64,000 nt of DNA from Heterodontus francisci (lineage: Eukaryota), in assembly GCF_036365525.1 (NCBI RefSeq), contig NC_090411.1:26920819-26984818 (forward strand), written 5' to 3'. Numbering within the stretch: the first letter of the stretch is position 1; every line of letters begins with the position of its first letter. A model generated the notes under the pieces. The model was not told the origin of the DNA, did not search any database, and saw nothing but the letters and a program-made list of their open reading frames with translations. The translations under genes were made by a program, and so were the position numbers. Shown piece after piece: positions 3,322-46,262 of the stretch.

Positions 3322-3715
3322 TCTGAGAAATTGGGTTTTTCATTAGGAGATTGAAGGGTGATCTGGTTGAGGTGATAAGATGTCAAAAGGATTTGATTGG
3401 GTCGATAGAGAGAAACTTTTATCTGGGAAATCTAAAACAAGGGGCTATAATTGTAAAACAGGAGCTAGGCCATTTAGGAGAAAGCTCGGAAGGTAGTAGA
3501 AAATCTGGAACACTGTCCCCCTAAAAAGCTGTGGATACTACGGGGCAATTAGAGTGATTAAGGCTGAGATCGATAGATTTTTATTTTGTGTAAGGGTATA
3601 AAGGGAAATGGAGGAATGAAGGGTAAATTGATTTGAGATACAGATCAACCATGATCTAATTGACTGTTGGAGCAGGCTTGAGGAGCTGAATGGCTTATTC
3701 CTGTTCCTGTGTTCA
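3322..3715 (+). mobile_element. Degenerate CR1 LINE 3' fragment
   Basis: Similar to the CR1 ORF2 end and 3' UTR of the better copies (GGCTGAGATCGATAGATTTT...GAATGGCTTATTCCTGTTCCT). Confidence 0.65.
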
Positions 3716-5459
3716 AAGGTAACAGTTCTGCTATTTGTTTGTATTGGCATAAAGCAACAGAAATGATGTGATAGTAATGTTACATGTATAGGAAGCTCAA
3801 TGACCCTTGTGGACTCCAGGCATCACAGTTTGAAAACCCGTGTTTTAAATTATTCACTCCATAATAAGAAAGGAAAAGTTCACATTTATATAGCCCCATG
3901 TCATGTCCACAGGCACCCAAAGTACATGACAATCAATTACTTTTGAAGTAATTTTGTGCAGGAAAATGGAGCAGCCTATTTGTGTGCAGTAAACGTCTAA
4001 CAGTGAATGAGTTGGCGAGACAAATGGAGCCTTGGTTTGGTGTCTAACCTCTGAGAACTCCACTGAAATATCAGCCTAAATTATGTTATCAAGTCTCAGA
4101 CTGGGGCTTGGACCACAACCTTCTGACTTTAGTGTTACCAACTGAGTCAAGCTGAATGAGAGCTCAGCATTGCAATGGTGGGAATTACATTTGACATGTT
4201 CTTATTTCTCTGCATGCGGTTTCATTTGTTGGGACTTTTTTTTTAACCTGAAGGCATAAGAATGGGAATATTCTTCATACTGCATGTTCTTGTGTCATCT
4301 TTAAATTTTGGGGTTTTTTTTTTTTAGTTAAAAACAGAAAGGCGAATGTGAGCCGGGACCATTCTGAAATCTGGGCATCAGTACAGTTCACGTTGAAAAT
4401 GATTTTTATTTGCAAATTTTCTCCATTTCCCTACTGGAGTAATGCCCCCCCCACACAAACCAGTTGCCCTCTGATACTTTGCCCAAGTGGCAGTTATGAG
4501 CCCAGCCTATCAGCATTGGCAAGCTGTTTGATCAAGTTAGCAGCACTGAGAAACCTTCTGATCTCAAGTTATACGTGCACTTTTCAACAGCATCACTGCT
4601 TTGATGTGAACTGCACTGACATCCAGATTGCAGAATGGTCCCACTCACATTTGCAAACATTGTTTCGTCCCCTCTGTTTCCTTTCTGCCTCGCCAGACTA
4701 TTTTAGTGCCTTTCATACCATTCTGACATTAGCTAACTCGGTGCAATTAAGGGATCAGACCTGGAACCCACCTGATCTGTAATATCATGCAATTTATCTA
4801 CTGTGCCTTGATGGGAGACTTCTAGAATTTATGCCCATGGAAATATATTTTTTGTGGTATTTCTCCTCACAATTCCTTAAACTTAGAGTATGGCACACAA
4901 AGCTGTCAAAACCAGTTCAGTTCCATCATTGGAGGAAACCTGTATGGCGTATCCGGTGGCTTGACCACCCCTGAGTTATGTGGTGTTGCATTTTTTCATG
5001 TGCAGCATTTCATATGTGGGTTAAAATAAAATGCTGGAAACACACAACAGGCCAATTGGCAACTATAAAAAGGAGAGACAAGTTGTGATATTGTAGATGC
5101 GTGTTGCCGTTTCAATGTAGGGGGCACACCTGTAACCTGCCTGTTCCCTTCACATTTGCTGACTGACCTGCTGTGTATCTCTGTTTTACTTGCAATGTTT
5201 GGGTAAATGTTTGTTTGGGTATCTGGGCTTGGGAAAGTAGAGATGGGGCAACACCATCAGGTCCATCTGCAGTCACTGTGTCCACTTGCCAGCACAGCTC
5301 TCATGCAGCACGCTCCCTGTCTGCCACTAACACAAACTCAGTAATGAAAACTCGTGAGACAATTCCAACACAAAAGCAATGGGGCACTCCACCTCAGTGG
5401 AGTGGTGGAAAGAATTTGGTGCAGATTTTCCTCATGCACACTAGTTGCTTTAATGAAAA

Positions 5460-5748
5460 ACAGAAATGAAATAAAAAGGATGCTGGAAATCTGGAAATAA
5501 AAATCAGAAATTGCTATGCTGGAAGCACTCAGCAACTCAGGCAGCATCTGTTGAAAGAGAATTGGTTAATACTTTAGGTCGATGATCTTTCGTTAGAGAT
5601 GTAACAGATTTTACACAAGTACAGAGGCAGGGAAAGTGGGAAGGAGGGGAGAGAGAACAAAAGGGAATGTCTGTGATAGGGTGGGAGGCAGGAGCGATTA
5701 AACGACAACAGAGATGATGGTGCAAAGCAAAATGAGATGGTATTGGGA
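5460..5748 (-). mobile_element. Short non-autonomous Penelope-tail repeat (~290 bp family)
   Basis: Shares ACAAGTACAGAGGCAGGGAAAGTGGG...TGTCTGTGATAGGGTGG with 53990-54295 and, as reverse complement, with 56800-57050. Confidence 0.65.
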
Positions 5749-5749
5749 C

Positions 5750-6505
5750 ATGGGAACATAGGAGTAGGCCATTCAGCAGAACGAGTCTGCCCTGCCATTC
5801 AATGCAGTCATGGCTGATCTTCCATTTCAATGCCTTTTTCCCACACTATCCTCATATCCCCTTATGTCATTTGTATTTAGAAATCTGTCAATCTCTGCTT
5901 TAAACATACTCGATGACTGAGCTTCCACAGCCCTCTGGGGTAGAGAATTCCAAAGATTCACAATCCTCTGAGTAAAGAAATTTCTCCTCATCTCGGTCCT
6001 CAGTGACTTCCCCCTTATTTTAAAATTGTGTCCCTTGGTTCGAGACTCCCGAACCAGGGGAAACATCTTAGCTTCATCTACCCTGTCTATCCCTTTAAGT
6101 ATTTTGTAGGTTTCAATGAGATCACCTCTCATTCTTTGAATCTCTAGAGAATACAGGTCCAGTTTCCCCAATCTCTCTTCATAGGACAGTCCTGTCATCC
6201 CTGGAACAAGTCTGGTGAACCTTTGTTGCACTCCTTCTATGGCAATAATATCCTTCCTAAGGTAAGGGGACCAAAACCGCATTCGGTACTCCAAGTGTGG
6301 TTTAACCAAGGTTCTATACGATTGAAGCAAGGCTTCACTACCCATATACTCCAAATTCTCTTGTGATAAAGGCTAACATACCATTAGCTTCTTAATTGCT
6401 TGCTGCACCTGCATGTTAGCTTTCAGTGACTTATTGACAAGGGCACCCAGGTCCCTTTGTACATCTACACTTTCTAATCTCTGATCATTTAAGAAATACT
6501 CTGCA
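5750..6505 (-). mobile_element. CR1 LINE 3' fragment
   Basis: ORF 5827-6354 YRTLVKPHLEY..FWSPYLRKDI..LSYEERL..RRNFFTQRIVNLWNSLP is the CR1 ORF2 C-terminus. Confidence 0.9.
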
Positions 6506-6624
6506 CAGTTCTTTTGTTATTTATACATCCTGAGTATTTCTAGCATTTTCCGTTTTGCTTTAATAAATAAAAGGTTGATTTTTTTTTTTGTTTTTATTTT
6601 CTTCCAGATTGAGGTTTCTTTAAA

Positions 6625-6750
6625 ATGGCGGAAGGTGGACCTGAGAGAAACAGGCAACATCCCAACAATTTGCAGGGTCTGTTGAGACTTGCAGTGGAGG
6701 CAGGGTCTGTGGGTGACACAGCTCCTGAAATACAGCCTATGCCAGAAGAA
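6625..6750 (+). CDS. HSPBP1: HSPBP1 (Hsp70 nucleotide exchange factor, Fes1 family) coding exon 1
   Basis: Acceptor AG at 6606-6607 after a T-rich tract, ATG in AAAATGG context, PNNLQGLLRLAVEAG matching human PRNLQGLLQMAITAG, donor GTAAGT at 6751 (phase 0). Confidence 0.95.
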
Positions 6751-7169
6751 GTAAGTATGATTCTACTTGGCCACCCTCTTCCATGCTCTACTCAATGGCC
6801 CACTGTTGAAAGGCATTGCAAAGCTAGACAGATCAGATGGTTTGGCATTCACTACTCTTTATGGAGCTAGCTGCTGTGTCCCTGGGTAGCAGTAAAACGA
6901 AAAGCAGTGCTGAAACCTGCAACACAAACAGAAAATGCTGCAAATGCAGCAAGACAGACACTGCATCTATGGCAAGAAATGGCAAGTTATCCTTTCAGGC
7001 ATAACCCATCATTGGAACCCTTACTTACTGAGTGTTTCCAGGATTTACTGGGTTTTTTTCTGTGTCTTAGTAGGATTACATTAATTAGCATAAGTGTAAT
7101 GAGTGAGTCCTGCTGGAAAATGCATATGCAGTGTGGATGTGATCATAACTGAAACAAAAGAAAAAGAAA

Positions 7170-8810
7170 GACTTACATTTATATAGTGCATTTCACAAAC
7201 TTGGGACGTCCCAAAGCCCTTTACAGCCAATGAAGTACTCTTTAAATTAAAAGCAAGGAATGCTGGAAATAGTCAGCAGGTCTGGCAGCATCTGTGGAGA
7301 GAGAAGCAGAATTAATGTTTCAGGTCAGTGACCCTTCAACAGAACTGGCAAATATTAGAAATATTTTGGTTTTAAGCAAGTAGTGTAGGGGTGGGGCAAG
7401 AGATAACAAAAGAGAGGAGGTGTTGATAGGACAAGATCACAGAGAATAACTGACCAGAAGGTCATGGAGCAAAATCAAATGGTATGTTAATGGTGTGGTG
7501 AAAGACAATGCGTTAGTACAGAGAGGGTGTTGATGGACAGAAAACTGAACAGCCTGGCCCCAAGCACAAACATGAAAAAAACAGTGGGTAGGTACAGTAG
7601 AAACAAATTAACAAACTAAAATAAAATAAACGCATAAAAAAGTAAAAAAATAACTGAAAATAAAAAGGGGGGCCCATCATGCTCTGCAATTATTGAACTC
7701 AATGCTCAGTCCGGCAGGCTTTAGCGTGCCTAATCAGTAAATGAGGTGCTGTTCCTCGAGCTTGCGTTGATGTTTACTGGAACACTGCAGCAATCCCAAG
7801 ACAGAGATGTGAGCATGAGAGCAGGGGGAAGTGTTGAAATGCCAAGCAACCGGAAGCTCAGGGTCATGTTTTCAGACTGAGTGGAGGTGTTCCGCAAAGC
7901 GGTCACCCGGTCTGCGTTTGGTCGCCCCAGTGTAGAGGAGACCACACTGTGAGCAGTGAATACAGTATACTACATTGAAAGAAGTACAAGTAAATCACTG
8001 CTTCACCTGAAAAGAGCGTTTGGGGCCTTGGATAGTGAGGAGAGAGCAGGTAAATGGGCAGGTATTACACCTTCTGTGACTGCAGTGGAAGGTGCCGTGG
8101 GAAGGGGACGAGGTGGTGGGGATAATGGAGGAATGGACCAGGGTGTCGCGGAGGGAACAATCCCTTCGGAATGCTGACGGGAGGGAAGATGAAGATGCGT
8201 TTGGTAGTGGCATCGTGCTGGAGGTGGCAGAAATGGCGGAGGATGATCCTTTGGATGTGAAGGCTGATGGGGTGGAAAGTGAGGACTGTCGCAGTTCTGG
8301 GAGGGAGGGGAAGGGGTGAGGGCAGAGGTGCAGGAAATGGGCCAGACAAGGTTGGGGGCTCTGTCAACCACAGTGAGGGGGGGGAATCCTCGGTTGAGGA
8401 AAAGGGAAGACATATCAGAAGCACTGTCATGGAAAGTACTGTTTGAAGTTTGTAATGTTATAGTGTAGGAAATGCGGCACACAACAAGATGCTACAATCA
8501 GCTATGTGATAATGACTAGATAATATGTTTTTGTGATGTTGACTGAGGGATAAATATTGGCCAGGATGATTTCCCCGCTCCTCTTCAAAATAGCGCCATG
8601 GGATCTTTTACATCCACCTGAGAGGGCTGAAAGGGTCTCAGCTTAATGCCTCATCTGTAAACAACACCTCCGATGGTGCAGCAGTCCCTCAGTACTGCAC
8701 TGGCGGTGTCAGTCTAGTTTTTTGTGCTCAAGTCTTTGGAGTGGGACTTGAACCCACAACCTTCTGGCTCTGAGGCAAGACTGGTACCAACTGAGGCATG
8801 GCTGACAAAA
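7170..8810 (-). mobile_element. Deu-domain tRNA-derived SINE split by a Penelope insertion
   Basis: Tail ACTTACATTTATATAG...CCCAAAGC (7170-7246) continues at 8434 into ATATTGGCCAGG...GGGATCTTTTACATCCACCTGAG and a tRNA-like head GGGACTTGAACCCACAACC. Confidence 0.7.
7247..8433 (-). mobile_element. Penelope-like element, 5'-truncated, with a frameshifted GIY-YIG region
   Basis: Remnants FLNRGFP, LTFHP, AFRRDCSLRDTLVHS, GTFHCSHRRCNTCP, plus the same tail as 1168-1707. Imperfect 14-bp TSD AAGTACT(C/G)TTT(A/G)AA at 7233-7246 and 8434-8447. Confidence 0.85.
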
Positions 8811-9482
8811 ACAGGTACCAAGTCCGAGAAGCAGCACGTATTGAGTTTAGTTACCCGTGAATGGATTTTAAAACCTGGGGGGAAAAAAAGTGAGTTATTA
8901 GATGATTTGCAAGGGTTGTCTCCATTACTCTAAGGAAGGGTCTCTGCCTGAATCATTAACTTGTCTTTCCAAATGCTGACAGACTTGCTGTCCATTTCCA
9001 GTTTCCAAATTTCATAGGACTTAGCAGGAGTAGGCCATTCGGTCCTTTGAGCCTGCTCTGCCATTCACTAAGATCATGGCTGATCTGGTTGTGGTCTCAG
9101 CTCTGCTTTTCTATCTGCTCCCCATAACCATTGACTCCCTTGTCTATCAAAAATCTATCTATCTGAGCCTTGAATAAATTCCAACGTCTGCAATCTATTT
9201 GTTTTATCTTCACCCGAGATCAGCACAGACTAGGAATCGGGCCAGTGAGCTTCTGGATTATGTTGCTGAGTTAAATCCTGCTTTGCCAACTAAGCAGCTG
9301 GCAGGGGAAGGTGGGGGTGGTGTGGGATGTCACGCCATTTTCCTCTTTCCCTAGCCCAATGATGCAGAGGTTGCCTGCTTCTCCGTGTGGTGCATGTTTT
9401 ACTGCCATTTAATAATGGTTCATTTCTCTCTCTCTCTCTCTCTCTCTCTCCTTCCCTCCCTCCTCCCCCCCCCCCCCCCCAG

Positions 9483-9669
9483 CGCAGACAGTGGCTGCAG
9501 GATGCGCTGTCGGATGTGTTTCATGGACAGTTGGATGAACTGAAACAGATTAAAGAATGCCTCCAGATCCTGAATGCAACATCTGAGGGCGACACAAATG
9601 AAGATGGGAGGAGGTGCAATGCACTCGATACTGTAGCGGATTTGTGCGAAAACCTTGACAATGCAGGAG
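9483..9669 (+). CDS. HSPBP1: HSPBP1 coding exon 2
   Basis: AG at 9481-9482 after a (TC)n/poly-C tract. RRQWLQDALS...ADLCENLDNAG. Donor GTAATT at 9670. 187 nt, phase 0 to 1. Confidence 0.95.
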
Positions 9670-9928
9670 GTAATTGATGTTGTCCGTGAGGCTTGGGGTC
9701 ATTTTCTGATTTTATTCAAACTTTAAAAAAAAAAAGACTTGCATTTGACTAGCGCCTTTCACAACCTCAGGATGTCCCAAAGTGCTTTGAAGCCAATTAA
9801 GTTCTTTGAAGTGAAGTCACTGATGTAATAGGAAATGATTGGGAGTGAAAACTGTGGCTGATATTCTCCACTCGTTAGCCCCGATTCAACTGAGGCAGGT
9901 TTATTAATACCCTCTTCGCTTTCTTTAG

Positions 9929-10153
9929 ATTTCTGTAAACTGGCTGGCATGCAGATGGTGGTGGAGAACTTCCTGGAATGCCCGGACCCTGAGCTGCGTT
10001 GGCGAACGGCACACCTCATTGGCACGTGTAGCCAGAATAACCCCTTTGTCCAGGAGCACGTGCTGAACCTGGGCACGATGCCCAAACTCCTGGAACTTCT
10101 GAACAGTGACAACAGCGACATGGTTCGAATCAAGGCTCTCTTTGCTGTATCAT
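9929..10153 (+). CDS. HSPBP1: HSPBP1 coding exon 3
   Basis: DFCKLAGM..LRWRTAHLIGTCSQN..VRIKALFAVS with AG/GTAAGT boundaries. 225 nt, phase 1 to 1. Confidence 0.96.
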
Positions 10154-10764
10154 GTAAGTGTAATGGTTGATTGAGGGCAAAATATTGGCCAGGATACAAG
10201 GGATAACTTCCCTACTTTTCTTCGAAATAGTGCCATGAGATCTTTTATGCCCACCTGAGAGGGCAGATGGGGGCTTCAGCCATGTTTGGGTTCATGGTGC
10301 AGAAAACTGGGTCCTTACAACAATGATGACTTGCATTTATATAGCACCTATAAGGTAGAAATGGAGCCCCCAAGGAAGAACTATACACCGATCAAAAGAG
10401 AGATACGAGGGAGAAGCAAAGGCTTTGTTGATAGGATGGGTAATAAAACAGGATCTTAAAGGTGGAGAGGAGGTTTAGAGAGGTAACGTCAAAGCATGGG
10501 CCTAGGCAGTTGATGGCATGACCGCCAATGGTGACACAAAAGGTGGGGGCATGCACAGGAGGCTGGAGTCAGGCATAAGGACAGTTTGAGGGTGAAGTGG
10601 GGGACCATGGAAGGGTGTGTGGTTGTAGGGCTGGAGGAGGTATTGGACACAAGGAAGAATCCTGCAGAAATACCAGTTTGTGCTCTATCCCAACCAAGAG
10701 GTGGGTTCCAAAGTACAGGTAGGTATAATACTAGGAGCCCACTTAAAAAAAAAATGTAAATACG

Positions 10765-11352
10765 AACATAGGAATTAAGAGCAGGAGTAGGCCACTCGGC
10801 CCCTCGGGCCTGCTCCGCTATTCAATAAGCTTGTGGCTGAACTACTTACTCCACATTTCCACTTAACTCTGATAACCTTTCACCCGCTTGCTTATCGAGA
10901 ATCTATCTACCTCTGCCTTAAAAATATTCAAAGACTGCTTCCACCGCCTATTGAGAGAAAATTCTGCTCATTTCTGTCTTAAATAGGCGACCCCTTATTT
11001 TTAAACAGTGACGCCTTGTTCTTGATTCTCCCACAAGAGGAAACATCCTTTCCACATCCACCCTGTCAAGACCCCTTAGGATCTTATATGTTTCAATCAA
11101 GTCGCCCCTTACTCTTCTAAATTCCAGGGGATACAAGCCTAGCCTGTCCAATCTTTCCTCATAAGACAGCCTGCCCATTCCAGGTATTAGTCTAGTAAAC
11201 CTTCTCTGTACTGCCTCCAATGCATTTATATCCTTCCTTAAATAAGTACACCAGATGTGGTCTCACCAATGCCCTATATAGCTGAAGCATAACCTCCCTA
11301 CTTTTGTATTCAATTCCCTTCACGATAAACGATAACATTCTATTAGCTTTCC
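10765..11352 (-). mobile_element. CR1 LINE 3' fragment
   Basis: ORF 10948-11220 EAVQRRFTRLIPGM..LSYEERLDRLGL..RGDLIETYKIL. Confidence 0.88.
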
Positions 11353-11379
11353 AAGAGGATTAAAAAATTTTTTTTAGAA

Positions 11380-11950
11380 TTCATTCATGGGGCGTGGGCA
11401 TTGCTGGCCACGTTTGGCCAGCATTTGTTGGTCATTTCTATTTGAGAAGGTGGTTGTGAGCTGCCACTTTGAACCGCTGCGGTCCCAAGTGGTGTAGGTA
11501 CACCCAAGTGCTGTTAGATAGGGAGTTTCACAATTTTGGTACAGTGACAGTGAAGGTACGATGATATATTTCCAAGTTAGGATGGTACGTGGCTGGAGGG
11601 GAAATTGCAGCTGGTGGTGTTCCCGTGCGCCTGCTGCCCTTGTGCTTCTAGGTGGTCAAGCTTACAAGTTTGAAAGGTGCTGTTGAAGGGACCTTGGCGA
11701 GTTGCTGCAGTGCATCTTGTAGATGGTACACACTGCAGCCATGTTACACCGATGTTGGAAAGATTGAATGTCTAAGATGGTGGAGGATAGGCTGAATGGT
11801 GTCGAGATTCTTGAGTGGTGCTGGAGCCACAGTCATCCAGGCAATTGCAAAGTATTCCATCACACTCCTGACTGTACCTTGCAGGTGATGGAAAGATTTT
11901 TGGGAAGTCAGAAGATGAGTCACTGCAGAATACCCGACTTGTAGCCACAG
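11380..11950 (-). mobile_element. CR1/L2-group LINE 3' fragment
   Basis: Same family as 710-1040 and 59243-60370 (GGCCAGCATTTGTTG..GAGAAGGTGGT..GGATGGT..GGAGGGGAA). Confidence 0.7.
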
Positions 11951-12310
11951 TCTATGTTCAAAAGATTCACTGCATCAGATGGGTTGGCATTAAACCTGTT
12001 CCACCTCTCGAATACCACAGAGCACAGAGGGTGGGGGAAACATCCCAACTAATACCTTTTGTTGGTGTAGATATTAACACTGAACCATACAGACCAGAAA
12101 CTCCCAGTTCTGATTCCCTTAAGACACTGTGATGCCATCTATAGTCAAATAGCCACCTAATATTCATAGCTGAAGAATTGGGCTGAAGCTCAGATACAAG
12201 TAACTGCTATGCTCAATGTATTAATACAGCAGTGGGTGTTTGTAACGCTGATTAGCTTTTGAAAGTTGACTAGATGTTAATTTAACACACTTTCCTCCCA
12301 CCGCTTTCAG

Positions 12311-12466
12311 GTTTGGTGCGCGAACAGGAGGCTGGCTTACTTGAGTTTGTCGACCATGACGGTTTCTCGGTGTTGATGAGAGCCATGCAGAGTGGCATTG
12401 AGAAGCTGAAGGTGAAAGCTGCCTTCCTGTTGCAGAACCTGCTCATCAGCAGCCCTGAACACAAAG
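12311..12466 (+). CDS. HSPBP1: HSPBP1 coding exon 4
   Basis: CLVREQEAGLLEFVDHDGFSVLMRAMQ..KLKVKAAFLLQNLL..PEHK, bounded by TTTCAG| and |GTCAGA. 156 nt, phase 1 to 1. Confidence 0.96.
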
Positions 12467-12949
12467 GTCAGAATTTGCCAAAATAAAGGTGTGGAGAAGA
12501 GGGTGGGGCCACATCTTCCTTGCCCAGACTAATAATGTGGTGTGATGGGTTTTTAATTTTTTTTTTTCCTTTTCCCGTTTTTTTCTCCCCTCCTCTGCTG
12601 AAGGTCCTGACTCGTGCTGGGAGGCAGTTCCACGCCGGCCGGTTGTCCCCAGTAAGTATTGGCTGGCTATTCAATCATGGGGAACCTTCTCAGCTTGGCT
12701 CGATTTTGCCCTAATTTGATATGCACGAACACACAGTTTACCAGCCAGTGTCGCTGAACACCAGTTTAGGAGCCCTATTTGCATTTTGGCTCTCCTTCAG
12801 GTCCACTGAAGTTCATGCTTGCTCTCCAGCCTGAGTTCAGCTGGAGCAAAGAAAACCAGATTTCATATTTGGGTCCTCCTGCTCTAAATGGCTTTGGAGC
12901 ACAACAATCAGTACATTTAGCCGCTCAGATTGCACACTCACTATAGCAT

Positions 12950-13585
12950 CAACAACAAGACCTTGTATTTATATAGCGCCTTTAGTGTAATAAAACATCC
13001 CAAGGCACTTAACGTTAAGAAGAAAATGACACCAAGCCGCATAAGGAGATGTTGGGGAAGATGACCAAAAGTTTGGTTTAAGGGGTAAAATTGAAAGAAC
13101 GCCTTAAAGGAGGAAAGAGCGGTAGAAAGGCAGGGAGGGAATTCCAGAGCTAAAGGCACAGCCACCAATGGTGGAGTGATTAAAATCGGGGGAGGGGTCT
13201 GCACCAGGCCAGAATTGGAAGAGTGTAGATAATTCAGAGGGTTGTGGGGCTGGCAGAGGTTACAGAGACAGCCAGGGGTGAGGCCATGAAGGGATTTAAA
13301 AACGAGGATGAGAATTTTAAAATTGAGGCTTTGGTTAACCAGAAGCTAATCTTGGTCAGCGAGCTCAGGGGTGATGAGTGAACGGGACTTGATACGAGCT
13401 GGGACACGGGCAGCTGAGTTTTGGATGACATCAAGTTTACGGAAGGTAGCCTATGGGAGGCTGGTCAGGAGTGTGTTGAAAGAGTCAATAGTCTGGAGGT
13501 AACAAAGGCATGGATGAGCATTTCGGCAGAAGATGAGCTGAGGCAGGGGTGGAGTCAGGTGATGCTGCAGAGGTAGAAATAGGCA
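12950..13585 (-). mobile_element. L2 LINE 3' fragment
   Basis: Reverse complement of an L2-type tail (TTGTATTTATATAGCGCCTTT..AAACATCCCAAGGC) and remnant ILKFSSSFLNPFMASPL. Confidence 0.7.
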
Positions 13586-22018: not shown

Positions 22019-24769
22019 TCTTTTGGGCCTCCTTATCTCGAGAGACAATGGATACGCGCCTGGAGGTGGTCAGTGGTTTGTGAAGCAGCGCCTGGAGTGG
22101 CTATAAAGGCCAATTCTGGAGTGACAGGCTCTTCCACAGGTGCTGCAGAGAAATTTGTTTGTTGGGGCTGTTGCACAGTTGGCTCTCCCCTTGCGCCTCT
22201 GTCTTTTTTCCTGCCAACTACTAAGTCTCTTCGACTCGCCACAATTTAGCCCTGTCTTTATGGCTGCCCGCCAGCTCTGGCGAATGCTGGCAACTGACTC
22301 CCACGACTTGTGATCAATGTCACACGATTTCATGTCGCGTTTGCAGACGTCTTTATAACGGAGACATGGACGGCCGGTGGGTCTGATACCAGTGGCGAGC
22401 TCGCTGTACAATGTGTCTTTGGGGATCCTGCCATCTTCCATGCGGCTCACATGGCCAAGCCATCTCAAGCGCCGCTGACTCAGTAGTGTGTATAAGCTGG
22501 GGGTGTTGGCCGCTTCAAGGACTTCTGTGTTGGAGATATAGTCCTGCCACCTGATGCCAAGTATTCTCCGAAGGCAGCGAAGATGGAATGAATTGAGACG
22601 TCGCTCTTGGCTGGCATACATTGTCCAGGCCTCGCTGTCGTAGAGCAAGGTACTGAGGACACAGGCCTGATACACTCGGACTTTTGTGTTCCGTGTCAGT
22701 GCGCCATTTTCCCACACTCTCTTGGCCAGTCTGGACATAGCAGTGGAAGCCTTACCCATGCGCTTGTTGATTTCTGCATCTAGAGACAGGTTACTGGTGA
22801 TAGTTGAGCCTAGGTAGGTGAACTCTTGAACCACTTCCAGAGCGTGGTCGCCAATATTGATGGATGGAGCATTTCTGACATCCTGCCCCATGATGTTCGT
22901 TTTCTTGAGGCTGATGGTTAGGCCAAATTCATTGCAGGCAGACGCAAACCTGTCGATGAGACTCTGCAGGCATTCTTCAGTGTGAGATGTTAAAGCAGCA
23001 TCGTCAGCAAAGAGGAGTTCTCTGATGAGGACTTTCCGTACTTTGGACTTCGCTCTTAGACGGGCAAGGTTGAACAACCTGCCCCCTGATCTTGTGTGGA
23101 GGAAAATTCCTTCTTCAGAGGATTTGAACGCATGTGAAAGCAGCAGGAAGAAGAAAATCCCAAAAAGTGTGGGTGCGAGAACACAGCCCTGTTTCACACC
23201 ACTCAGGATAGGAAAGGGCTCTGATGAGGAGCCACCATGTTGAATTGTGCCTTTCATATTGTCATGGAATGAGGTGATGATACTTAGTAGCTTTGGTGGA
23301 CATCCGATCTTTTCTAGTAGTCTGAAGAGACCACGTCTGCTGACGAGGTCAAAGGCTTTGGTGAGATCAATGAAAGCAATGTAGAGGGGCATCTGTTGTT
23401 CACGGCATTTCTCCTGTATCTGACGAAGGGAGAACAGCATGTCAATAGTCGATCTCTCTGCACGAAAGCCACACTGTGCCTCAGGGTAGACGCGCTCAGC
23501 CAGCTTCTGGAGCCTGTTCAGAGCGACTCGAGCAAAGACTTTCCCCACTATGCTGAGCAGGGAGATTCCACGGTAGTTGTTGCAGTCACCGCGGTCACCT
23601 TTGTTTTTATAGAGGGTGATGATGTTGGCATCGCGCATGTCCTGGGGTACTGCTCCCTCGTCCCAGCACAGGCATAGCAGTTCATGTAGTGCTGAGAGTA
23701 TAGCAGGCTTGGCACTCTTGATTATTTCAGGGGTAATGCTGTCCTTCCCAGGGGCTTTTCCGCTGGCTAGGGAATCAATGGCATCACTGAGTTCCGATTT
23801 GGTTGGCTGTATGTCCAGCTCATCCATGACTGGTAGAGGCTGGGCTGCATTGAGGGCAGTCTCAGTGACAGCATTCTCCCTGGAGTACAGTTCTAGGTAG
23901 TGCTCAACCCAGCGGTCCATCTGTTTGCGTTGGTCAGTGATTATGTCCCCCGATTTAGATTTGAGGGGGGTGATCTTCTTGATGGTTGGCCCAAGAGCTC
24001 TCTTCATGCCATCATACATTCCTCTGATGTTTCCGGTGTCTGAGGCCAGCTGAATATGACTGCATAGGTGTTGCCAGTAGTCGTTTGCGCAACGCCTAGC
24101 TGTTCTTTGTGCAGTACTTCTGGCTGCTTTAAGTGCTGCGGATGTTAAATCGCTGGGGGCTTTCTTGTAGTTCAAAAGTGCAATGCGCTTAGCGGCTATG
24201 ACAGGTTCCAGCTCTTCATTATGAGATTGAAACCAGTCTGCATTTCTCTTCGCACTTTTGCCGTAGGTGGTCAAAGCTGACTCATAGATGGCGTCTCTGA
24301 TGTGGGCCCACTTGGTCTCAGCATCCCCTGTGGGAGTGTTTTGAAGGGCTGTTACAAGTGAATTTAGAAATTTTTGTAACAGCTGTGGGTGAGAAATTCT
24401 GCTCGTGTTGATGCGCGGGTGGCCCTTCTGCTTGGAATGATGCAACTTCTTTGGTCTGAGTCTAACCTTGCTGCACACCAGGGAGTGGTCGGTGTCGCAG
24501 TCCGCACTGTGGAAGCTGCGTGTGATTTGAACACTGTTTAAGGCGGCTCGCCTTGTGACAATGAGGTCTAGCTGGTGCCAACGACGTGATCTTGGGTGCC
24601 TCCATGAAACCTGGTGACAGGGTTTAGTGTGAAAGAACGAGTTGGTGATGCAGAGGTTATGATAGGTACACAACTCAAGCAGTCTCTGCCCGTTCTCATT
24701 CATCCTTCCAACGCCATAGCGCCCAAGGCAGGAGGGCCATGAGTCATGGTCGGCCCCAACCCTGGCTAA
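22019..24769 (-). mobile_element. Young RTE-clade LINE, 5'-truncated within the APE domain, ORF otherwise open, 72-bp TSD
   Basis: About 900 uninterrupted codons with APE C-terminal motifs (NENGQRLL, DTDHSLV), RT motifs (NYRGISLL, FIDLTKAFD, GVKQGCVLAP, LFADD) and a C-terminal CSTCGRAC..HSRRC. Tail CCAAAAGAAG. Identical 72-bp flanks at 21947-22018 and 24770-24841. Confidence 0.95.
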
Positions 24770-24989
24770 TACCTGGTTATTATCATATTGCTGTTTGTGG
24801 GAGCTTGCTGTGTGTATACTCGCTGCCATTTTCTCTGCACTACAACAGTACAAAAAGTACTTCATTGGCTGTAAAGCATTTTGAGGTGTCCGGTTGTTGA
24901 GAGAGGCGAAATAAATTCATAAATGCAAGACATGAATGCAAGTCTTTTTTTTTAGATCACTGTTAGACCTCAATTAGAATATATATGTT

Positions 24990-25108: not shown

Positions 25109-25409
25109 ATTAGAATATATATGTTTGTGTGTCTATTATAGATATATGTAGATACATATATATTTGTGTGTGGATATGATAGATATATTGTACATTGATA
25201 CATATATATTTTTATATATTATAGAGCAATATAGATAGGGCCCTACAAATTTAGTCAAATTTTACAAATTATACGGGCACGGTATTTTAAGAATCATGAA
25301 TTTCACGATTTCAAATATTTAAATTATAAATTTCAGAGTTGCAACAAGCCATGAAAATTATCTATTTAAAACAAAAAAAGTCCAAGGAGGTTTCTGGTTT
25401 CAAATGGCA

Positions 25410-25415
25410 TTTATT
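25410..25415 (-). terminator. Candidate poly(A) signal of the CGGBP-like gene
   Basis: AATAAA on the - strand about 64 nt after the stop codon. Confidence 0.5.
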
Positions 25416-25478
25416 GTATATTCAAAAACTATTGTAAAATGTTAACTATAAACAGTTCATGTTCTTTACTCACTGAAA

Positions 25479-27479
25479 TCAGTGGTTGAATGTGAGCATG
25501 GAGCAACCTGCAACTGTCTCTTTCTTCATTCCCTGTCTCTGCGCTGTGAACACCTGTCCACGTTTAGACACAGCTCTCTCCACATTCGCTGAGTTTGTCG
25601 GAATTGTCAGACAGCGCCGTGCTAGCCTTGCAAGGTGGGGGATTCTGCATTCCACAGAGTTCCAAAACTGCAGCACAGGCAAAGTAGAATCCGCTTCCTT
25701 TGCAATGCTTTTATAAGCAGGAATCTCCAACCTACAGTTCTTATCAAAGCCAGGAATTGCATGAAACAAGTTTAAATCCACCATCAACAGGTTTATTTGT
25801 GCAGGGTCAAAGATACGCACAGCTTTCAGGAATGCTGCAGAAGGTTGTTGAAACTTCTGAGCCACATTTTCTTCACTGCTTGACTGTTCCCCGTAGCAGT
25901 AATATCGTTTGAGCTTCTTTGCCATGCAAGAAAACACTTGTTGAGCACAGGCATTTAATTCAGTTTCATCAGAGTGTTGTTGATTTGACTGTGCTTCAGC
26001 CCAGAACAGTACATCCATTACTTTATTGTAAGCTTTGTGGATTGTGACATGTCGAGATTCAAACCAAGTGATTAAATCCATCAGTTGTGTAACATTCTTG
26101 GCAACAAACTGAACCTCCTCATTAAGCTGAGCATCGTTTAGAAGGGTTACAATGTCTGTTAAAACCTGTATTTTTGGTGTCAGTGTGAGCTCTTCTGAGA
26201 TGAAGTCTGAGTAGTATTTCAGGTGAGCTGCATGATATTGTACTGCCCGAAACCAAGAATTGCAATGTGTAATTACTGGCTCTGGAGGAAGGGCTATGTT
26301 TTGTTCCCCAATTTCAACTGCATTTGCAATATGTTGCCTGTATCGAAGCTTGCGACTAGGGCAGTGTTTGAAGATCTCTTTAATGTAGCTGACCAGTTTG
26401 TCGACATTACCAAACTCGCTTTTCCACAGCTCACTAATAAGAGAAATTATATGTGCATTACATATAATATGGACAACATTAGGCATTACACCTTGGAGCA
26501 CAGATTTGAAAGATTTTGTTAAATAAGTTGCATTGTCACTAACGAAAGCAGACACTTTGTTGAAATCTGCACCATATTTTGAAACGGTTTTGAGTATCGC
26601 TTGGGAAACTGTGGTGGAATTAACAGCTTCTAAGTAGACGCAGTTTGCAAGCACTGTTGTTAGCTTTCCTGATTGTACATCTTCAGCTTTGTCAGACATA
26701 AAATCAAATAAAACATGCAGCACATAGTTGTTTTGCTCATTGGTGGACTCATTACAAACAATTGCAAAAGACTCACATGCGTTAATCTGAGACTTCATCT
26801 CCTCACAATGTGTAGCAAAAACCTTCGGTAGGTAGTCTTGTCGTAGTTTATTTGCACTTGGCAAGCAACCACCATTTTGCACATTACGTTGAATGAATAC
26901 CCGCAGCTTTGGGTGATCAAGTTTTTCCAATGGTATGTTGGCGCTTGCAAAAGCATCCACAAGTTCCATTGTAAGCAGCTGACGATTTTCTGAGCTTTCA
27001 GTCGACTTCTTAAAAAGAGATGAAACAGTTTGTTTTTTTGCATGTTTGTTTTGCAGCCGTGCGGTGTCAGATGCTCTCTTCCCGCAACCCCTGTTTTGCA
27101 CATTGCGTTGAATGAATAGCCGCAGCTTTGGTTGATCAAGTTTATCCAACGGTATGTTGGCGCTTGCAAAAGCATCCACAAGTTCCAGGGGAACGCACTG
27201 ACTGTTTTCTGAGCTCTCTGTCGACTTCTTAAGAGATGAATCCGGTGCTTGTTTCTTTGCGTGTTCGTTTTCCAGCAGTGCCGTGTCCGATGCTCTCTTT
27301 CTGCTGCGATGACTTTCGGACTCTAAATGCCGCTGAACCGTTGCCCGCCGTGTGTGATCCAGCGAAACATTGCAACTCGTACAAAACAGTATTCCACCAG
27401 CAGCATGCAAAATTTGGCTTCCAAATTCCTTCACTCGATGTGCTGCAGTAATGGTTGTGGCCTTTTTAGATTTGCTCAT
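25479..27479 (-). CDS. CGGBP1-like hAT-transposase-derived protein, 666 aa (BED zinc finger, duplicated DNA-binding segment, RNase H-like domain, hATC-like C-terminus)
   Basis: RVKEFG..GGILFCTSCNVSLDH..HLESESH and ANIPLEKLDHPKLRVFIQRNVQNGGCLPSANKLRQDYLP closely match human CGGBP1 (RVTEFG..GGKLFCTSCNVVLNH; ANIPLEKADHP..VKNGGSIPKSDQLRRAYLP). hAT motifs VSDNA, CNAH, QFW..PHLARLA..IPTNSANVER are present. Confidence 0.9.
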   Translation of the reverse strand: MSKSKKATTITAAHRVKEFGSQILHAAGGILFCTSCNVSLDHTRRATVQRHLESESHRSRKRASDTALLENEHAKKQAPDSSLKKSTESSENSQCVPLELVDAFASANIPLDKLDQPKLRLFIQRNVQNRGCGKRASDTARLQNKHAKKQTVSSLFKKSTESSENRQLLTMELVDAFASANIPLEKLDHPKLRVFIQRNVQNGGCLPSANKLRQDYLPKVFATHCEEMKSQINACESFAIVCNESTNEQNNYVLHVLFDFMSDKAEDVQSGKLTTVLANCVYLEAVNSTTVSQAILKTVSKYGADFNKVSAFVSDNATYLTKSFKSVLQGVMPNVVHIICNAHIISLISELWKSEFGNVDKLVSYIKEIFKHCPSRKLRYRQHIANAVEIGEQNIALPPEPVITHCNSWFRAVQYHAAHLKYYSDFISEELTLTPKIQVLTDIVTLLNDAQLNEEVQFVAKNVTQLMDLITWFESRHVTIHKAYNKVMDVLFWAEAQSNQQHSDETELNACAQQVFSCMAKKLKRYYCYGEQSSSEENVAQKFQQPSAAFLKAVRIFDPAQINLLMVDLNLFHAIPGFDKNCRLEIPAYKSIAKEADSTLPVLQFWNSVECRIPHLARLARRCLTIPTNSANVERAVSKRGQVFTAQRQGMKKETVAGCSMLTFNH

Positions 27480-27599
27480 CCTGCCTTTCCCTCTCCTCTG
27501 CTAACACTTGACAATGCAGTTGGAGGCCCTCCCTTAGCTGCCAGTCGGCGAGTTATGTCAATCACTAAAACATCATTTTAGGCAAGCGGGCCCATTTGA

Positions 27600-28242
27600 C
27601 GGAGGACGTGAGATTTCATGGTCCCTGACGCATTTTTCACGGCGCTGAATGCGGTCGGGCGCTAATTTTGTTCTGGAGCAATGCTATTGCTAAGGAAGGT
27701 GCAGAGGCCGCAAGATGGTCTGGCCCCGTCCCCTGCCCTGGCGGCGGCGCGGTGCACTGTAGGATACGGGAGGACCGAGGCGGGCGGACATGTTGTGCGG
27801 AGGGAGCCGGAGTGAGTGAGCGATAGTAAATAGCAACGGCGAGTGAGAGGCGGACACGGAGCTTCGGGCAGACAGACACTTATCCCGCCTTTTCGCTACT
27901 CCAGCTTCCCCTCCTCGGTTTGCTCGCACTCTCACCTCCTTCCTTCTCCATCTTATTTTACCCCCCCCCCCCTTACCAAAAAAAAACTTGCTCCCGCTCC
28001 CTCGCTCTCTTTGTGAGGCCTAGCGGAAATAGGTCAATCCCCGGGCTTTCCTGGAGAGCGTAGCCGGGCCAGCTGAGGGGGTAAGCCGGGGTTGCTGAGG
28101 TTGAGGCTGGAGGGGGATCAGACAGGCGCCCAATGCAGCTTCTCGGCAGCCGATTGCTTCGCATTTCACCATCTCCATCCAACCAGAAGCACCTCCATTA
28201 TCGTTTGGCGGTGGGAATTTACCCACTCACACTGATTTAAAA
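27600..28242. promoter_or_regulatory. PPP6R1: CpG island: PPP6R1 promoter and non-coding exon 1, probably bidirectional
   Basis: Dense CpG, GC boxes (GAGGCGGGCGG ~27777), YY1-like CAAGATGG (27711). Candidate + strand donors GTGAGT (27812), GTAAGC (28081), GTAAGT (28243). No other comparable CpG island lies between here and the PPP6R1 ATG exon. Confidence 0.75.
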
Positions 28243-28549
28243 GTAAGTCTCTGCCTCATAACTTTGTTATATTGACCACTTCACTCCTGTGAAAACCCCA
28301 TTATTGTCAACCTGTAGATACTTTCACTTGTGTGTCTGTGCCAGCTGTAGTATTAACTGTTAGAAGTGGTTGGAGGAGGGGGAAGAGGGCTTTTTAAAAA
28401 ATATAAAAATGATTGTATGATGCACTTACCACAACTCAATGGTTCAGTGAATTGCTGAGCTGTACAGATTGCAAAGGTCCCTGTGTAATAAAAGTAATTG
28501 CACTCCAAAAGTAGTGGAAAAGAATTAATGTGCTGTGTAAATTCAGATT

Positions 28550-43869: not shown

Positions 43870-44096
43870 ATGTTTTGGAAGTTTGACCTTCACACGACAT
43901 CGCACATTGACACGCTCCTGGAACGTGAGGATGTCACGCTCTTTGAGCTTATGGACGAGGAGGACGTCCTACAAGAGTGCAAGGCTAACAACCGCAAGCT
44001 GGTGGAGTTCCTGACACGGCCGAACAACATGGAGACACTTGTTACCTGCATTACCATGGAGCCATCTGATGATATGGACGAGAAAGTTCGATACAA
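43870..44096 (+). CDS. PPP6R1: PPP6R1 (PP6 regulatory subunit 1, SAPS family) first coding exon
   Basis: Acceptor AG at 43862-43863. [44 protein letters not shown]. Donor AA|GTAAGG at 44097. 227 coding nt, phase 2. Confidence 0.93.
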
Positions 44097-46262
44097 GTAA
44101 GGAGTTGTTCCACAGGGCCTGATCCTAGAGGAAATATATGTTTGATAAAGAGTTAATCATTTTGTGAAATTTAGCTCTGGATTGGAAGAGGTGTTCCCTA
44201 TTTTTTTTTTTAAATCTCCCCTCCTTTGTTGAAGATGTTGAGACCTGATGGGGTGCATTCCACAAGTACTGGCAACCCTTCAGTACGTCATTCACTGGAC
44301 CATTTTTCATTTATTAGCTTCTACAGAGCATGATGGCAGGCTGTCCAACTGTATCATAACTGATATCCCTCTTCATCCAGTATCCACACTAATTCATTTT
44401 ATAGCAGGTGTTAAGCGGTACTAATTGGAGCCTTATGTTTTTTCTCTCCCAGCCCACAGCTATACCATTATTTGAAGTGGAATCTGCTGGCTCCACACAC
44501 AGAGGGGATCAGATCTTGGTCTACCTTGGTCTATGTGTCTCTAATCCACACTAGGCAGTACATTTACTGACTGAGTAAGGTGGTGAAGAGTGCAGTTATT
44601 TTTCCTCCTCACATACGAGGATTGCTTTCCCACTCAAACTGAGAGTGAGAGCACAGCAGCTGAGGGAAGTATGGATTTGCATTCATATCTACGCATGAGT
44701 CTTTATATTAAAGAAAACAATTTTAATATGTGACCTAGTTTGATTCTATATAGGCTGTCTTGAAGTCAACACATTGCACCATCTCTGTTGTTCATTTCTA
44801 GGATCTCAATTATGTAGCTTCTAACTCTCCTCCACCCCACTACCACCTCACTCTGGCAATGTACAGACTTTTAAATCCTGCGCCTGCTATCACTGTTTTC
44901 AGAGTTTTTTTGCTTTCCCCTCTTTACTGCCAATTTTCTCTGCATTATACTCCTTTTCAGGAGGTGGCATCTCCCTCCGGTTTCCCAATTGTCAGGCTTC
45001 CTTGCCGACCTCCCTTAAGCTTGCCTTGTTTTCACCACGACCTTAACATCCATAGATTCTGGTTCTCTTTTAAACCTAGCAGATGCCGTGCAAAATGGAC
45101 CCCAGCGCCTTGCTCTTGAGTCTCAATAAACAAAAGACCTTGTCCGCCCACAGCTTGTGCATATGCAAATATCAGATCTCCAGCGTTAGCACATTCGTGC
45201 ATATATTGGGGCAAGTCGCAGCCAGTAGTGAGGTAGCATGAAATTCGTCTGCTGTTCGAAGTTGACTGTTCTGTGGTTAACGTTGCCTCTTTTTTTTTAA
45301 AAAAAGAGGTTACATTGCCATGATGTCTGTTGAGTGGTGAATTCCTGTCTAACTCAGTTTCTTAAAATAACCCAGTATCCTGCGAGCTCTACATTATAGC
45401 AGTAACCAGCAATATTAGAACAGGCCTGCATTTTTCTTTTGAAAGAAAACCCCAGAACTGCTAACTGTTCGCCCGAGGATTGTAGACAGTAAAAAAACAG
45501 CCTTAACATTCAGTCTGAATACATCTTTGTTCTTATGATTTGAAATCATCTGAGCAGTTTTAATGTATTTTCTCCCTAAATTTTAATCCTTTTTTCTCCT
45601 GTAGTAACTGGTTGTTGCTAAGTATGACTTCACAGCCACCAGGCAAACTCTCATGTTTCGTCCACGTGCCTGCTGTTTCACATGTGACTCTGGACTATGA
45701 GCATCAGTAGGGTGCTTGACCAGAAAGATATGACCGCTTAGCCCAAGCTCAATCCTGCCCCACTGGCAATTTCAAACAGGAAGTCACTGATTACTTATCC
45801 ATGCTAGCTGACATTGTAAATGGTCCCTGCTCCTCAACTACTATTCACCTCCCTTTCAAAATCCCTGTCATTAATTTCCTCACCATCAAAAAAATCTGCC
45901 CTTAACCCCTTTCTTTGATGATAACTGCTCCATCTACAAGCTCCCTTTACGCCCTCAAATCCTTCCAGGTGTTCTCTTCCAGATCAGTGCCCATCTTTCC
46001 CACAACTCCGTTTGAATCTTTGCTATCTGTTTCCACCCTCCCACATCACTGACCCAGCCCTAACCAGAGCCACTAACAATGTTCTCTGTGACTATGCGTA
46101 GAGGTTTATTCCTCCTTACCATTAATAATGAGCTTACTTTATTCTCTTTTTGCTCCCCCTACAAGAATGAATTTAGAGGAAACAAGTGATTATTTTTGTC
46201 ACTGATGTAATGCATTATAAAATATGACTTTATTTTCCTTGGTTTCGATTTGCATAATTCTA

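Follow-up and report, generated by a model that had tools for sequence, protein, structure and literature searches.

A 64,000-nt stretch of the Heterodontus francisci genome (NC_090411.1, positions 26,920,819 to 26,984,818; the window throughout) holds a copy of a repeated hAT DNA transposon, whose open reading frame (ORF; 25479-27479, minus strand, 666 codons) has no internal stop and encodes a CGGBP-type hAT transposase, P0001. The 5′ part of the ORF contains an in-frame 219-bp tandem duplication that is real and specific to this locus, and the amino-acid differences between its two copies are concentrated in a redundant middle, residues 79-150, that lies between one complete zinc finger and one complete dimerisation domain. 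We consider it reasonably, although by no means overwhelmingly, probable that P0001 is a young domesticated, catalytically dead CGGBP-like DNA-binding protein in which the duplication is a tolerated spacer. An earlier interpretation of the letters alone (the sequence-only reading) had noticed the duplication and proposed that the two copies could pair within a single chain. The element and the two copies, in window coordinates, are as follows.

25479..27479, minus strand: P0001 ORF, transposase-derived and open (Pfam Dimer_Tnp_hAT, E value 5.5e-12; structural match to Hermes)
25236..27664, minus strand: copy of a multicopy CGGBP-type (hAT-19-like) DNA transposon, about 2.4 kb (from depth in the DNA run X1 and terminal repeats)
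27084..27299, minus strand: repeat copy 1, residues 61-132, the tail helix of the finger plus a truncated, degenerate dimerisation domain
26865..27080, minus strand: repeat copy 2, residues 134-205, an orphan tail helix plus an intact dimerisation domain

The duplication and its confinement to one locus

Tandem Repeats Finder recovered the duplication (26875-27299, period 219, 1.9 copies, 86% matches, score 635) as the sole long-period row of the four that it returned for the window, in agreement with the sequence-only reading. The copies differ at 29 of 213 nt (71 aligned codon pairs), and neither contains a stop. Because each copy lacks a different single codon relative to the family (Phe in copy 1, Ala in copy 2), the duplicated unit probably measured 222 bp at the outset; spacing of 216 is also seen locally (family D18).

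The related mobile family reads as single-unit, which speaks against the possibility that the duplication was already present in the active transposon; depth in X1, family contigs and profile counts agree on this point. Summed contig depth in X1, which is not a copy number and is read here solely as the mark of a highly repeated family, was 3,500-13,000 across most of the element and 6-13 past 27683, and it fell at the element edges (bins 25142-25262 and 27562-27682). At 27102 and 27144 it was 7.9 and 8.9, like the unique flank (6.2), compared with thousands elsewhere in the element. Among the best-supported contigs listed, family contigs in X1 and in two further runs, X5 and X6, omit 220-232 nt across the duplication region. 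Short matches to residues 1-230 numbered 27, of which 10 were Heterodontus models named CGGBP1-like (‘CGG triplet repeat-binding protein 1-like’), and all of them span at most 61% of that region. Of 205 fetched proteins, a profile of distant homologues detected the domain in 196, with two units in P0001 only, the single unit of P0012 being interrupted by an insertion. In a library of 1.84 billion proteins, 224 matched the unit, and among the best 150 of these 224 two true units occurred only in P0001. Two proteins with several matching stretches were set aside, as P0199 (four stretches) is a chitin-binding repeat protein and P0084 (two stretches) has a single unit by profile.

X1 and X5 derive from one sample of organism A, which is possibly the source of the assembly and was not counted as independent; X6 represents organism B and comes from another study than the organism A DNA runs, and X16 represents organism C. 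One X6 contig (contig 30) covers 26922-27733 unbroken, with 17 other letters and 2 gap letters, and extends 159 nt to one side of the junction and 653 nt to the other, past the 5′ end of the element. Organism B shares both the insertion site and the junction at approximately 98% identity, and keeps two copies. The four ORF differences listed between organism B and P0001 all lie in residues 79-132 (2 synonymous, 2 non-synonymous). In X16, family pieces were present and depth at 27078-27198 was zero, an absence of cover that proves nothing. As organisms A and B differ by about 2% and the two copies by 23-28% at silent sites, the duplication would be much older than the A/B split.

A source in an active subfamily, or in misassembly, is very improbable. 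The evidence comes from contigs rather than long reads and from partial listings, so a small two-unit subfamily might exist, but the junction-side depth in X1 is that of a single locus, the organism B contig spans the junction in one piece and joins it to unique upstream flank, and 29 differences in 213 nt are too many for an artificial duplication.

A compositional trend was also seen. Across 27080-27479 (minus strand) most silent differences are G or C in copy 1 and A or T in copy 2, and three of the four changes listed for organism B likewise run towards G or C; this may reflect absent methylation or biased conversion near the CpG island described below.

Domain content of the copies and the distribution of changes

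The duplicated unit joins parts of two neighbouring domains, and the N-terminal region divides as follows.

27246..27479, minus strand: residues 1-78, conserved CCHH zinc finger (L31, C33, C36, H51, H57) with its tail helix, residues 55-75
27030..27245, minus strand: redundant middle, residues 79-150, which holds amino-acid changes and both one-codon deletions
26823..26864, minus strand: residues 206-219, last helix of the dimerisation domain (P207, L212, R213, Y216, P218), not duplicated

In a model of residues 1-235 the first quarter of the unit is the terminal helix of the finger (residues 55-75). P207, L212, R213, Y216 and P218, whose conservation in distant rows is 0.70-0.89, sit just beyond the unit, so neither the last helix nor the second conserved proline is present in copy 1. 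The distant-homologue profile scored 69 bits for copy 1, 91 bits for copy 2 and 126 bits for copy 2 with the last helix; copy 1 thus falls 22 bits below copy 2, and the two copies cannot be taken as two complete domains. All seven residues tied to DNA binding in PMC8097297, which include two prolines in the Hermes-type domain, are present on the complete path (L31, C33, C36, H51, H57, P183 and P207), and copy 1 has the first proline only. Zinc ligands are kept in 58-75 of 70-89 homologue rows.

The sequence-only reading had equated the segment with the part of CGGBP1 that follows a BED finger, and with the intertwined domain of Hermes, through which Hermes dimers associate and which lies after the BED domain (residues 1-78) (PMC10368747). 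The CGGBP-type domain and the position in Hermes bear this out, and the BED label does not find confirmation. In the whole-chain alignment of a model of residues 134-666, residues 146-205 align with Hermes ~85-139, and residues 146, 155, 182, 201 and 208 pair with Hermes 85, 94, 114, 135 and 142 (the ends of the ranges come from different rows). Unlike this alignment, the model of residues 1-235 alone did not recover the Hermes-type domain: it gave no Foldseek match at an E value of 0.001 and only matches of Z <6 in a wide search, Hermes not being listed. This model has a predicted template modelling score (pTM) of 0.54, and its predicted local distance difference test (pLDDT) falls below 50 at residues 82-92 and 132-144, which partly matches the placing of the amino-acid changes described below. 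A profile of the unit compared with solved structures found no relative apart from weak finger matches. The finger fold itself gave weak matches (Z 4.0-5.5) to U1/matrin-type fingers, and zf-BED was not among the 25 listed of 75 Pfam families for 122 aligned proteins; Pfam also misses the BED finger in CGGBP1 (PMC8097297).

The remainder of P0001 is a transposase body in which catalytic positions have changed.

25509..25688, minus strand: hAT C-terminal dimerisation region, residues 598-657, third catalytic Glu kept (Pfam PF05699, E value 5.5e-12)
26751..26753, minus strand: codon 243, position of the first catalytic Asp, here Asn (Asp in 59 of 64 homologues)
26262..26267, minus strand: codons 405-406, conserved Arg-Trp, here His-Cys (Arg in 47 and Trp in 50 of 57 homologues)

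The model of residues 134-666 (pLDDT 93, pTM 0.89) matched Hermes at Z 26-30, and the best 11 Foldseek matches listed were all Hermes (E values 3e-12 to 4e-10). With its RNase H-like core carrying an insertion domain, and its C-terminal hAT region, P0001 belongs to the hAT family. Of the five key hAT residues (Hermes D180, D248, R318, W319 and E572; PMC6027215), three are changed (positions 243, 405 and 406), and D315 and E634 are kept; Hermes numbering was mapped by motif conservation, with only the Glu aligned directly. The His at codon 405 is common to two relatives, P0002 and P0003. Judged by these residues, P0001 is catalytically dead and has lost transposition.

Residues 79-150 constitute the surplus part, because one finger-helix and one whole domain lie outside them. 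Polarisation against 17 family and outgroup rows gave 16 amino-acid differences or gaps between the copies, one of them weakly polarised (6 rows versus 5) and one in a column that departs from the family in both copies. Copy 2 carries the derived state at the first four of these, and copy 1 at 11 of the 12 that follow, which places 15 of the 16 within residues 79-150 (p 0.004 with a free breakpoint). Measured against the family majority over residues 1-225, changes occupied 4 of 141 columns on the complete path (residues 1-78 and 151-225) compared with 9 of 64 in the middle (Fisher p 0.004); residues 1-78 held 2 changes in 72 scored columns and were modelled with pLDDT mostly of 93-98. At 2.8% from the family majority, the path is closer to it than any of 12 family paralogues, which differ by 9.8-40% (median 17%, the top values being inflated by frameshifted tails). 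A lower mutation rate near the CpG island does not account for the conserved path, since the middle shares this CpG-rich DNA without sharing the conservation, and recombination of two family copies would alter one whole copy, not the middle.

Selection was also evident in the nucleotide changes. The ratio of non-synonymous to synonymous substitution rates (dN/dS) between the copies came to 0.30 (p 0.007) under one transition weight and 0.41 (p 0.036) under another, and ORF sites differing from the common letter of the family were 11 non-synonymous to 10 synonymous (n=21, p 0.009-0.034), showing that the open frame is under purifying selection. The signal was strongest in residues 1-78 and 151-225 and weak in the C-terminal part. 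Simulated neutral 2-kb frames remained stop-free in 0.4% of cases at 8% divergence and in 0.02% at 12%, and when indels were included (at assumed rates) at most 1% were intact even at 3% divergence. The sequence-only reading had taken the frame kept through divergence as independent evidence of constraint. The open 2-kb frame and the dN/dS support constraint as such, but chance alone would leave the redundant 72 codons stop-free in 42-56% of cases, which makes their lack of stops no evidence by itself, and it is a single complete path, not each of the two copies, that is constrained.

In residues 226-640, private changes occupied 33 of 415 columns, a rate between those of the path and the middle; this region may be drifting, with constraint weak or absent apart from the frame. 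The relative P0002 (Heterodontus francisci XP_067868695) has fewer private changes there, 15 of 415, and could represent a second domestication.

Explanations for the duplicated frame

We propose that a copy of a once abundant CGGBP-type hAT element inserted head-to-head with a host CpG-island promoter, and that a tandem duplication of approximately 222 bp in its 5′ coding region followed early, at this locus only. The outcome would be one complete zinc finger with its helix (residues 1-78) and one complete Hermes-type dimerisation domain (residues 151-225), separated by a domain without its last helix and then a helix without its finger (residues 79-150). Selection would retain the complete path and the frame, letting the orphan halves drift as a longer tether between the finger and the dimerisation domain, so that 73 drifting residues precede the intact dimerisation domain and the transposase body. 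The protein would most probably dimerise between chains through copy 2 and bind DNA through its finger, like other CGGBPs, functions that we assign by analogy with PMC8097297 and PMC10368747, and it could serve the host as a transcription factor or regulator, or as a damper of its parent family.

27001..28200, no strand: CpG-rich region, from the 5′ part of the ORF into the presumed host promoter (by CpG observed/expected)
9363-12483, plus strand: Fes1-domain exons (Pfam Fes1)
43870-44097, plus strand: SAPS-type first coding exon (no Pfam match)

The 5′ end of the element adjoins the CpG-rich region, where CpG observed/expected is 0.8-1.0 (27101-27900) compared with 0.34 for the window. We take the Fes1-domain exons to be an HSPBP1-like gene and the SAPS-type exon a PPP6R1-like gene, with the hAT copy between them; on the strength of these names the CpG island would be the PPP6R1-like promoter, lying head-to-head with the element. 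X5 and X6, two runs that we guess to derive from RNA, extend over locus-specific sequence, X5 ceasing near 27690 (estimated from bin depth) and X6 near 27733, and the DNA run X1 continues past these ends to 28500. These loose ends, from a partial listing, give a weak hint that transcription starts inside the CpG island.

Several observations weigh against a domesticated protein with a spacer. None of the runs is recorded as RNA. Under strict-majority polarisation 9 differences are left, of which 8 follow the pattern, and the breakpoint-aware p rises to 0.14; the boundary used in the Fisher test was picked post hoc. The 21 ORF sites were drawn from the best 40 of 722 rows, some of them perhaps being differences between subfamilies, and the C-terminal part alone gives a borderline ratio of 9:7 (p 0.04-0.11). 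Within residues 226-640, 9 of 27 changes fall at conservation of at least 0.8 (29.5% expected), conserved columns thus not being avoided, and the paralogue P0003 carries as many changes there (32, versus 33 in P0001). The frame in organism B is uncertain, as the position of its 2 gap letters is unplaced. The nine constructs with long insertions at this place gave no binding motif (PMC8097297, Fig. S2 legend), which raises the possibility that the tether impairs binding, although failures were in the majority throughout that study, with 22 successes among the 61 constructs of the best class (PMC8097297).

The sequence-only reading raised the idea of an intramolecular pseudo-dimer or of a change in oligomer state and DNA specificity. 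In the version considered here, the helical core of copy 1 (residues 98-130) would pack on copy 2, taking the position that a second chain would otherwise occupy and closing the intertwined domain intramolecularly, to yield a monomeric module or an altered oligomer state or specificity. Hermes dimerises via the same intertwined domain (PMC10368747), and structure prediction lends this idea some support that also counts against a mere spacer: the predicted complex of residues 78-133 with residues 134-225 scored 0.40, weak in itself, with the best of three controls at 0.02, and AlphaFold folded residues 98-130 at pLDDT ~90 without alignment cover (residues 81-150 being uncovered), as would fit a folded copy 1. 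The complex runs agreed in at least 94% of contacts, with partner pLDDT of at least 61, and the core at residues 99-129 has 3 changes, 2 of them conservative. Of 78 solved complexes, 51 attained the mark set for the complex score, as did 2 of 108 mismatches. Passes at or below 0.60, however, came from 5 of the 78 solved complexes and from all 4 mismatches that passed, and close cousins of a true partner passed in 10 of 12 cases; as the Hermes dimer is solved, a pass may signify likeness only. Copy 1 moreover lacks the last helix and second proline, has lost the family-majority Phe and, at 97, opposite a long helix of copy 2, has acquired a Pro. It has changed at a rate matching that of decayed paralogues, 2 of 4 changes in residues 99-132 fall at conservation of at least 0.5, as by chance, and the pTM for residues 1-235 is 0.54. 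We hold the fold-back of copy 1 onto copy 2 to be unlikely. If true, the host would thereby have converted a transposase module that is an obligate dimer into a DNA-binding unit made of one chain with one finger, or else into a subunit that poisons the parent transposase. Such a route of hAT domestication, which we did not meet in the literature searched, would have been caught at an early stage and with a single-unit parent family as control.

Somewhat more doubtful still is a neutral relic, namely a dead copy with a chance in-frame duplication and a frame not yet hit, read through from the neighbouring promoter and serving no host function. The changed catalytic residues, with several Asp-to-Asn changes that resemble CpG decay, the C-terminal changes that ignore conservation, the degenerate terminal repeats and the non-significant strict breakpoint test would all suit such a relic, and hundreds of family copies leave room for a lucky one. 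Frame survival of at most 0.4% at 8-12% divergence, before indels, and the dN/dS of 0.3-0.4 argue against it, as does the path, which stays within 2.8% of the family majority where the 12 paralogues differ by at least 9.8% and the middle, although it shares the CpG-rich DNA, departs further. We retain the domesticated DNA-binding protein with a tolerated spacer as our working explanation.

Surroundings, relatives and implications

The ends of the element and a candidate signal for transcript processing were located as follows.

25236..25246, plus strand: terminal inverted repeat at the 3′ end of the element, beginning TAGGG, located where family depth stops
27654..27664, minus strand: degenerate terminal inverted repeat at the 5′ end, 9 of 11 matches to the other end
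25410..25415, minus strand: AATAAA, candidate polyadenylation signal 64 nt past the stop, the sole such hexamer on this strand in 25201-25479

The TAGGG start fits the hAT end consensus quoted in PMC6027215. The 5′ repeat is the best-matching 11-mer within 27480-28500 and stands at the edge of family depth. No 8-bp target-site duplication was found, the flanks agreeing at no more than 5 of 8 positions with shifts of up to 3 nt allowed. Five ATGs lie upstream of the P0001 ORF, in the 5′ region of the element (27573-27633, minus strand), and could lower translation if they are part of the messenger RNA. Elsewhere in the window, a 931-codon open ORF of long interspersed nuclear element (LINE) type, reverse transcriptase-like by inspection (22070-24865, minus strand), is found on the strand of the hAT element, ~370 bp downstream of it, and a broken piece related to it (Pfam RVT_1) lies at 54988-56373 (plus strand).

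P0001 forms a one-member cluster in NCBI/UniRef. The nearest among 33 matches are Heterodontus francisci proteins at 85% and 82% identity and a Latimeria protein at 73%, and the metagenome contigs searched held no relative. P0002 is of the same transposon family and 85% identical to P0001, but has a single unit, lacks most of the finger and sits in another gene context, fused behind C2H2 fingers in a gene model with four isoforms. Distribution of the family is patchy, taking in sharks, coelacanth, reptiles and mosquitoes. Related hAT pieces occur in alligator and turtle gene models (P0016, P0019, P0026 and P0060), some of them fused to host genes, and a 2311-residue unnamed protein (P0141) joins AWS and SET domains to a CGGBP-type hAT body and may be a SET-transposase fusion or a mis-joined model.

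Hermes (PDB 4D1Q, 6DWW, 8SJD) offers the nearest structural comparison. Residues 134-666 align along Hermes 85-604 (Z 28.7, root mean square deviation (rmsd) 8.2, 426 aligned; best Z 29.7, rmsd 3.1, 397 aligned), with copy 2 at the place of the intertwined dimerisation domain. In contrast to Hermes, with which identity is ~15%, P0001 has a changed first catalytic Asp and Arg-Trp pair, a CCHH finger in place of the CCHC BED finger and 73 extra residues between finger and domain. In ZBED-type domesticated hAT transposases a full-length hAT body is kept as a host DNA-binding protein, as is proposed for P0001; P0001 differs from these in probably belonging, by its CGGBP-type N-terminus, to another hAT lineage and in being young, since its relatives in the genome can still be recognised by the hundred.

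Independent domestication of hAT transposases as CGGBPs is a known and frequent process: these proteins arose dozens of times, amniote CGGBP1 and the coelacanth CGGBPs included (PMC8097297). P0001 resembles them in its zinc finger and Hermes-type domain, the seven DNA-binding residues and an independent origin from a local hAT family (PMC8097297), and its closest short matches are named CGGBP1-like in Heterodontus and Latimeria. It is unlike them in keeping the whole transposase body open, as most assayed CGGBPs are truncated or intron-bearing (PMC8097297), and in its partial tandem duplication, which none of 195 other domain-bearing proteins has. Because it lies within its own transposon copy, with ends, P0001 is, as far as tested, not a CGGBP1 orthologue. 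The literature searched, outside which most subscription journals lie, described neither this gene nor any tandem duplication of the domain; the available part of PMC11575156 makes no mention of sharks. PMC8097297 gives the lack of orthologues as what hinders the measurement of selection on CGGBPs, and its Table S1 lists no cartilaginous fish.

On present evidence the duplication is a tolerated accident and not a new architecture with its own function. The locus nevertheless brings a built-in control, with one gene carrying the same segment twice, decayed single-unit paralogues by the hundred and an orthologous copy from organism B, and it shows selection keeping the finger and one whole dimerisation domain and releasing catalysis and the orphan halves. 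If copy 1 does not fold onto copy 2, this is a modest, lineage-specific example of a known process; if it does, the locus would show that duplicating part of a transposase-derived factor can switch its oligomer state.

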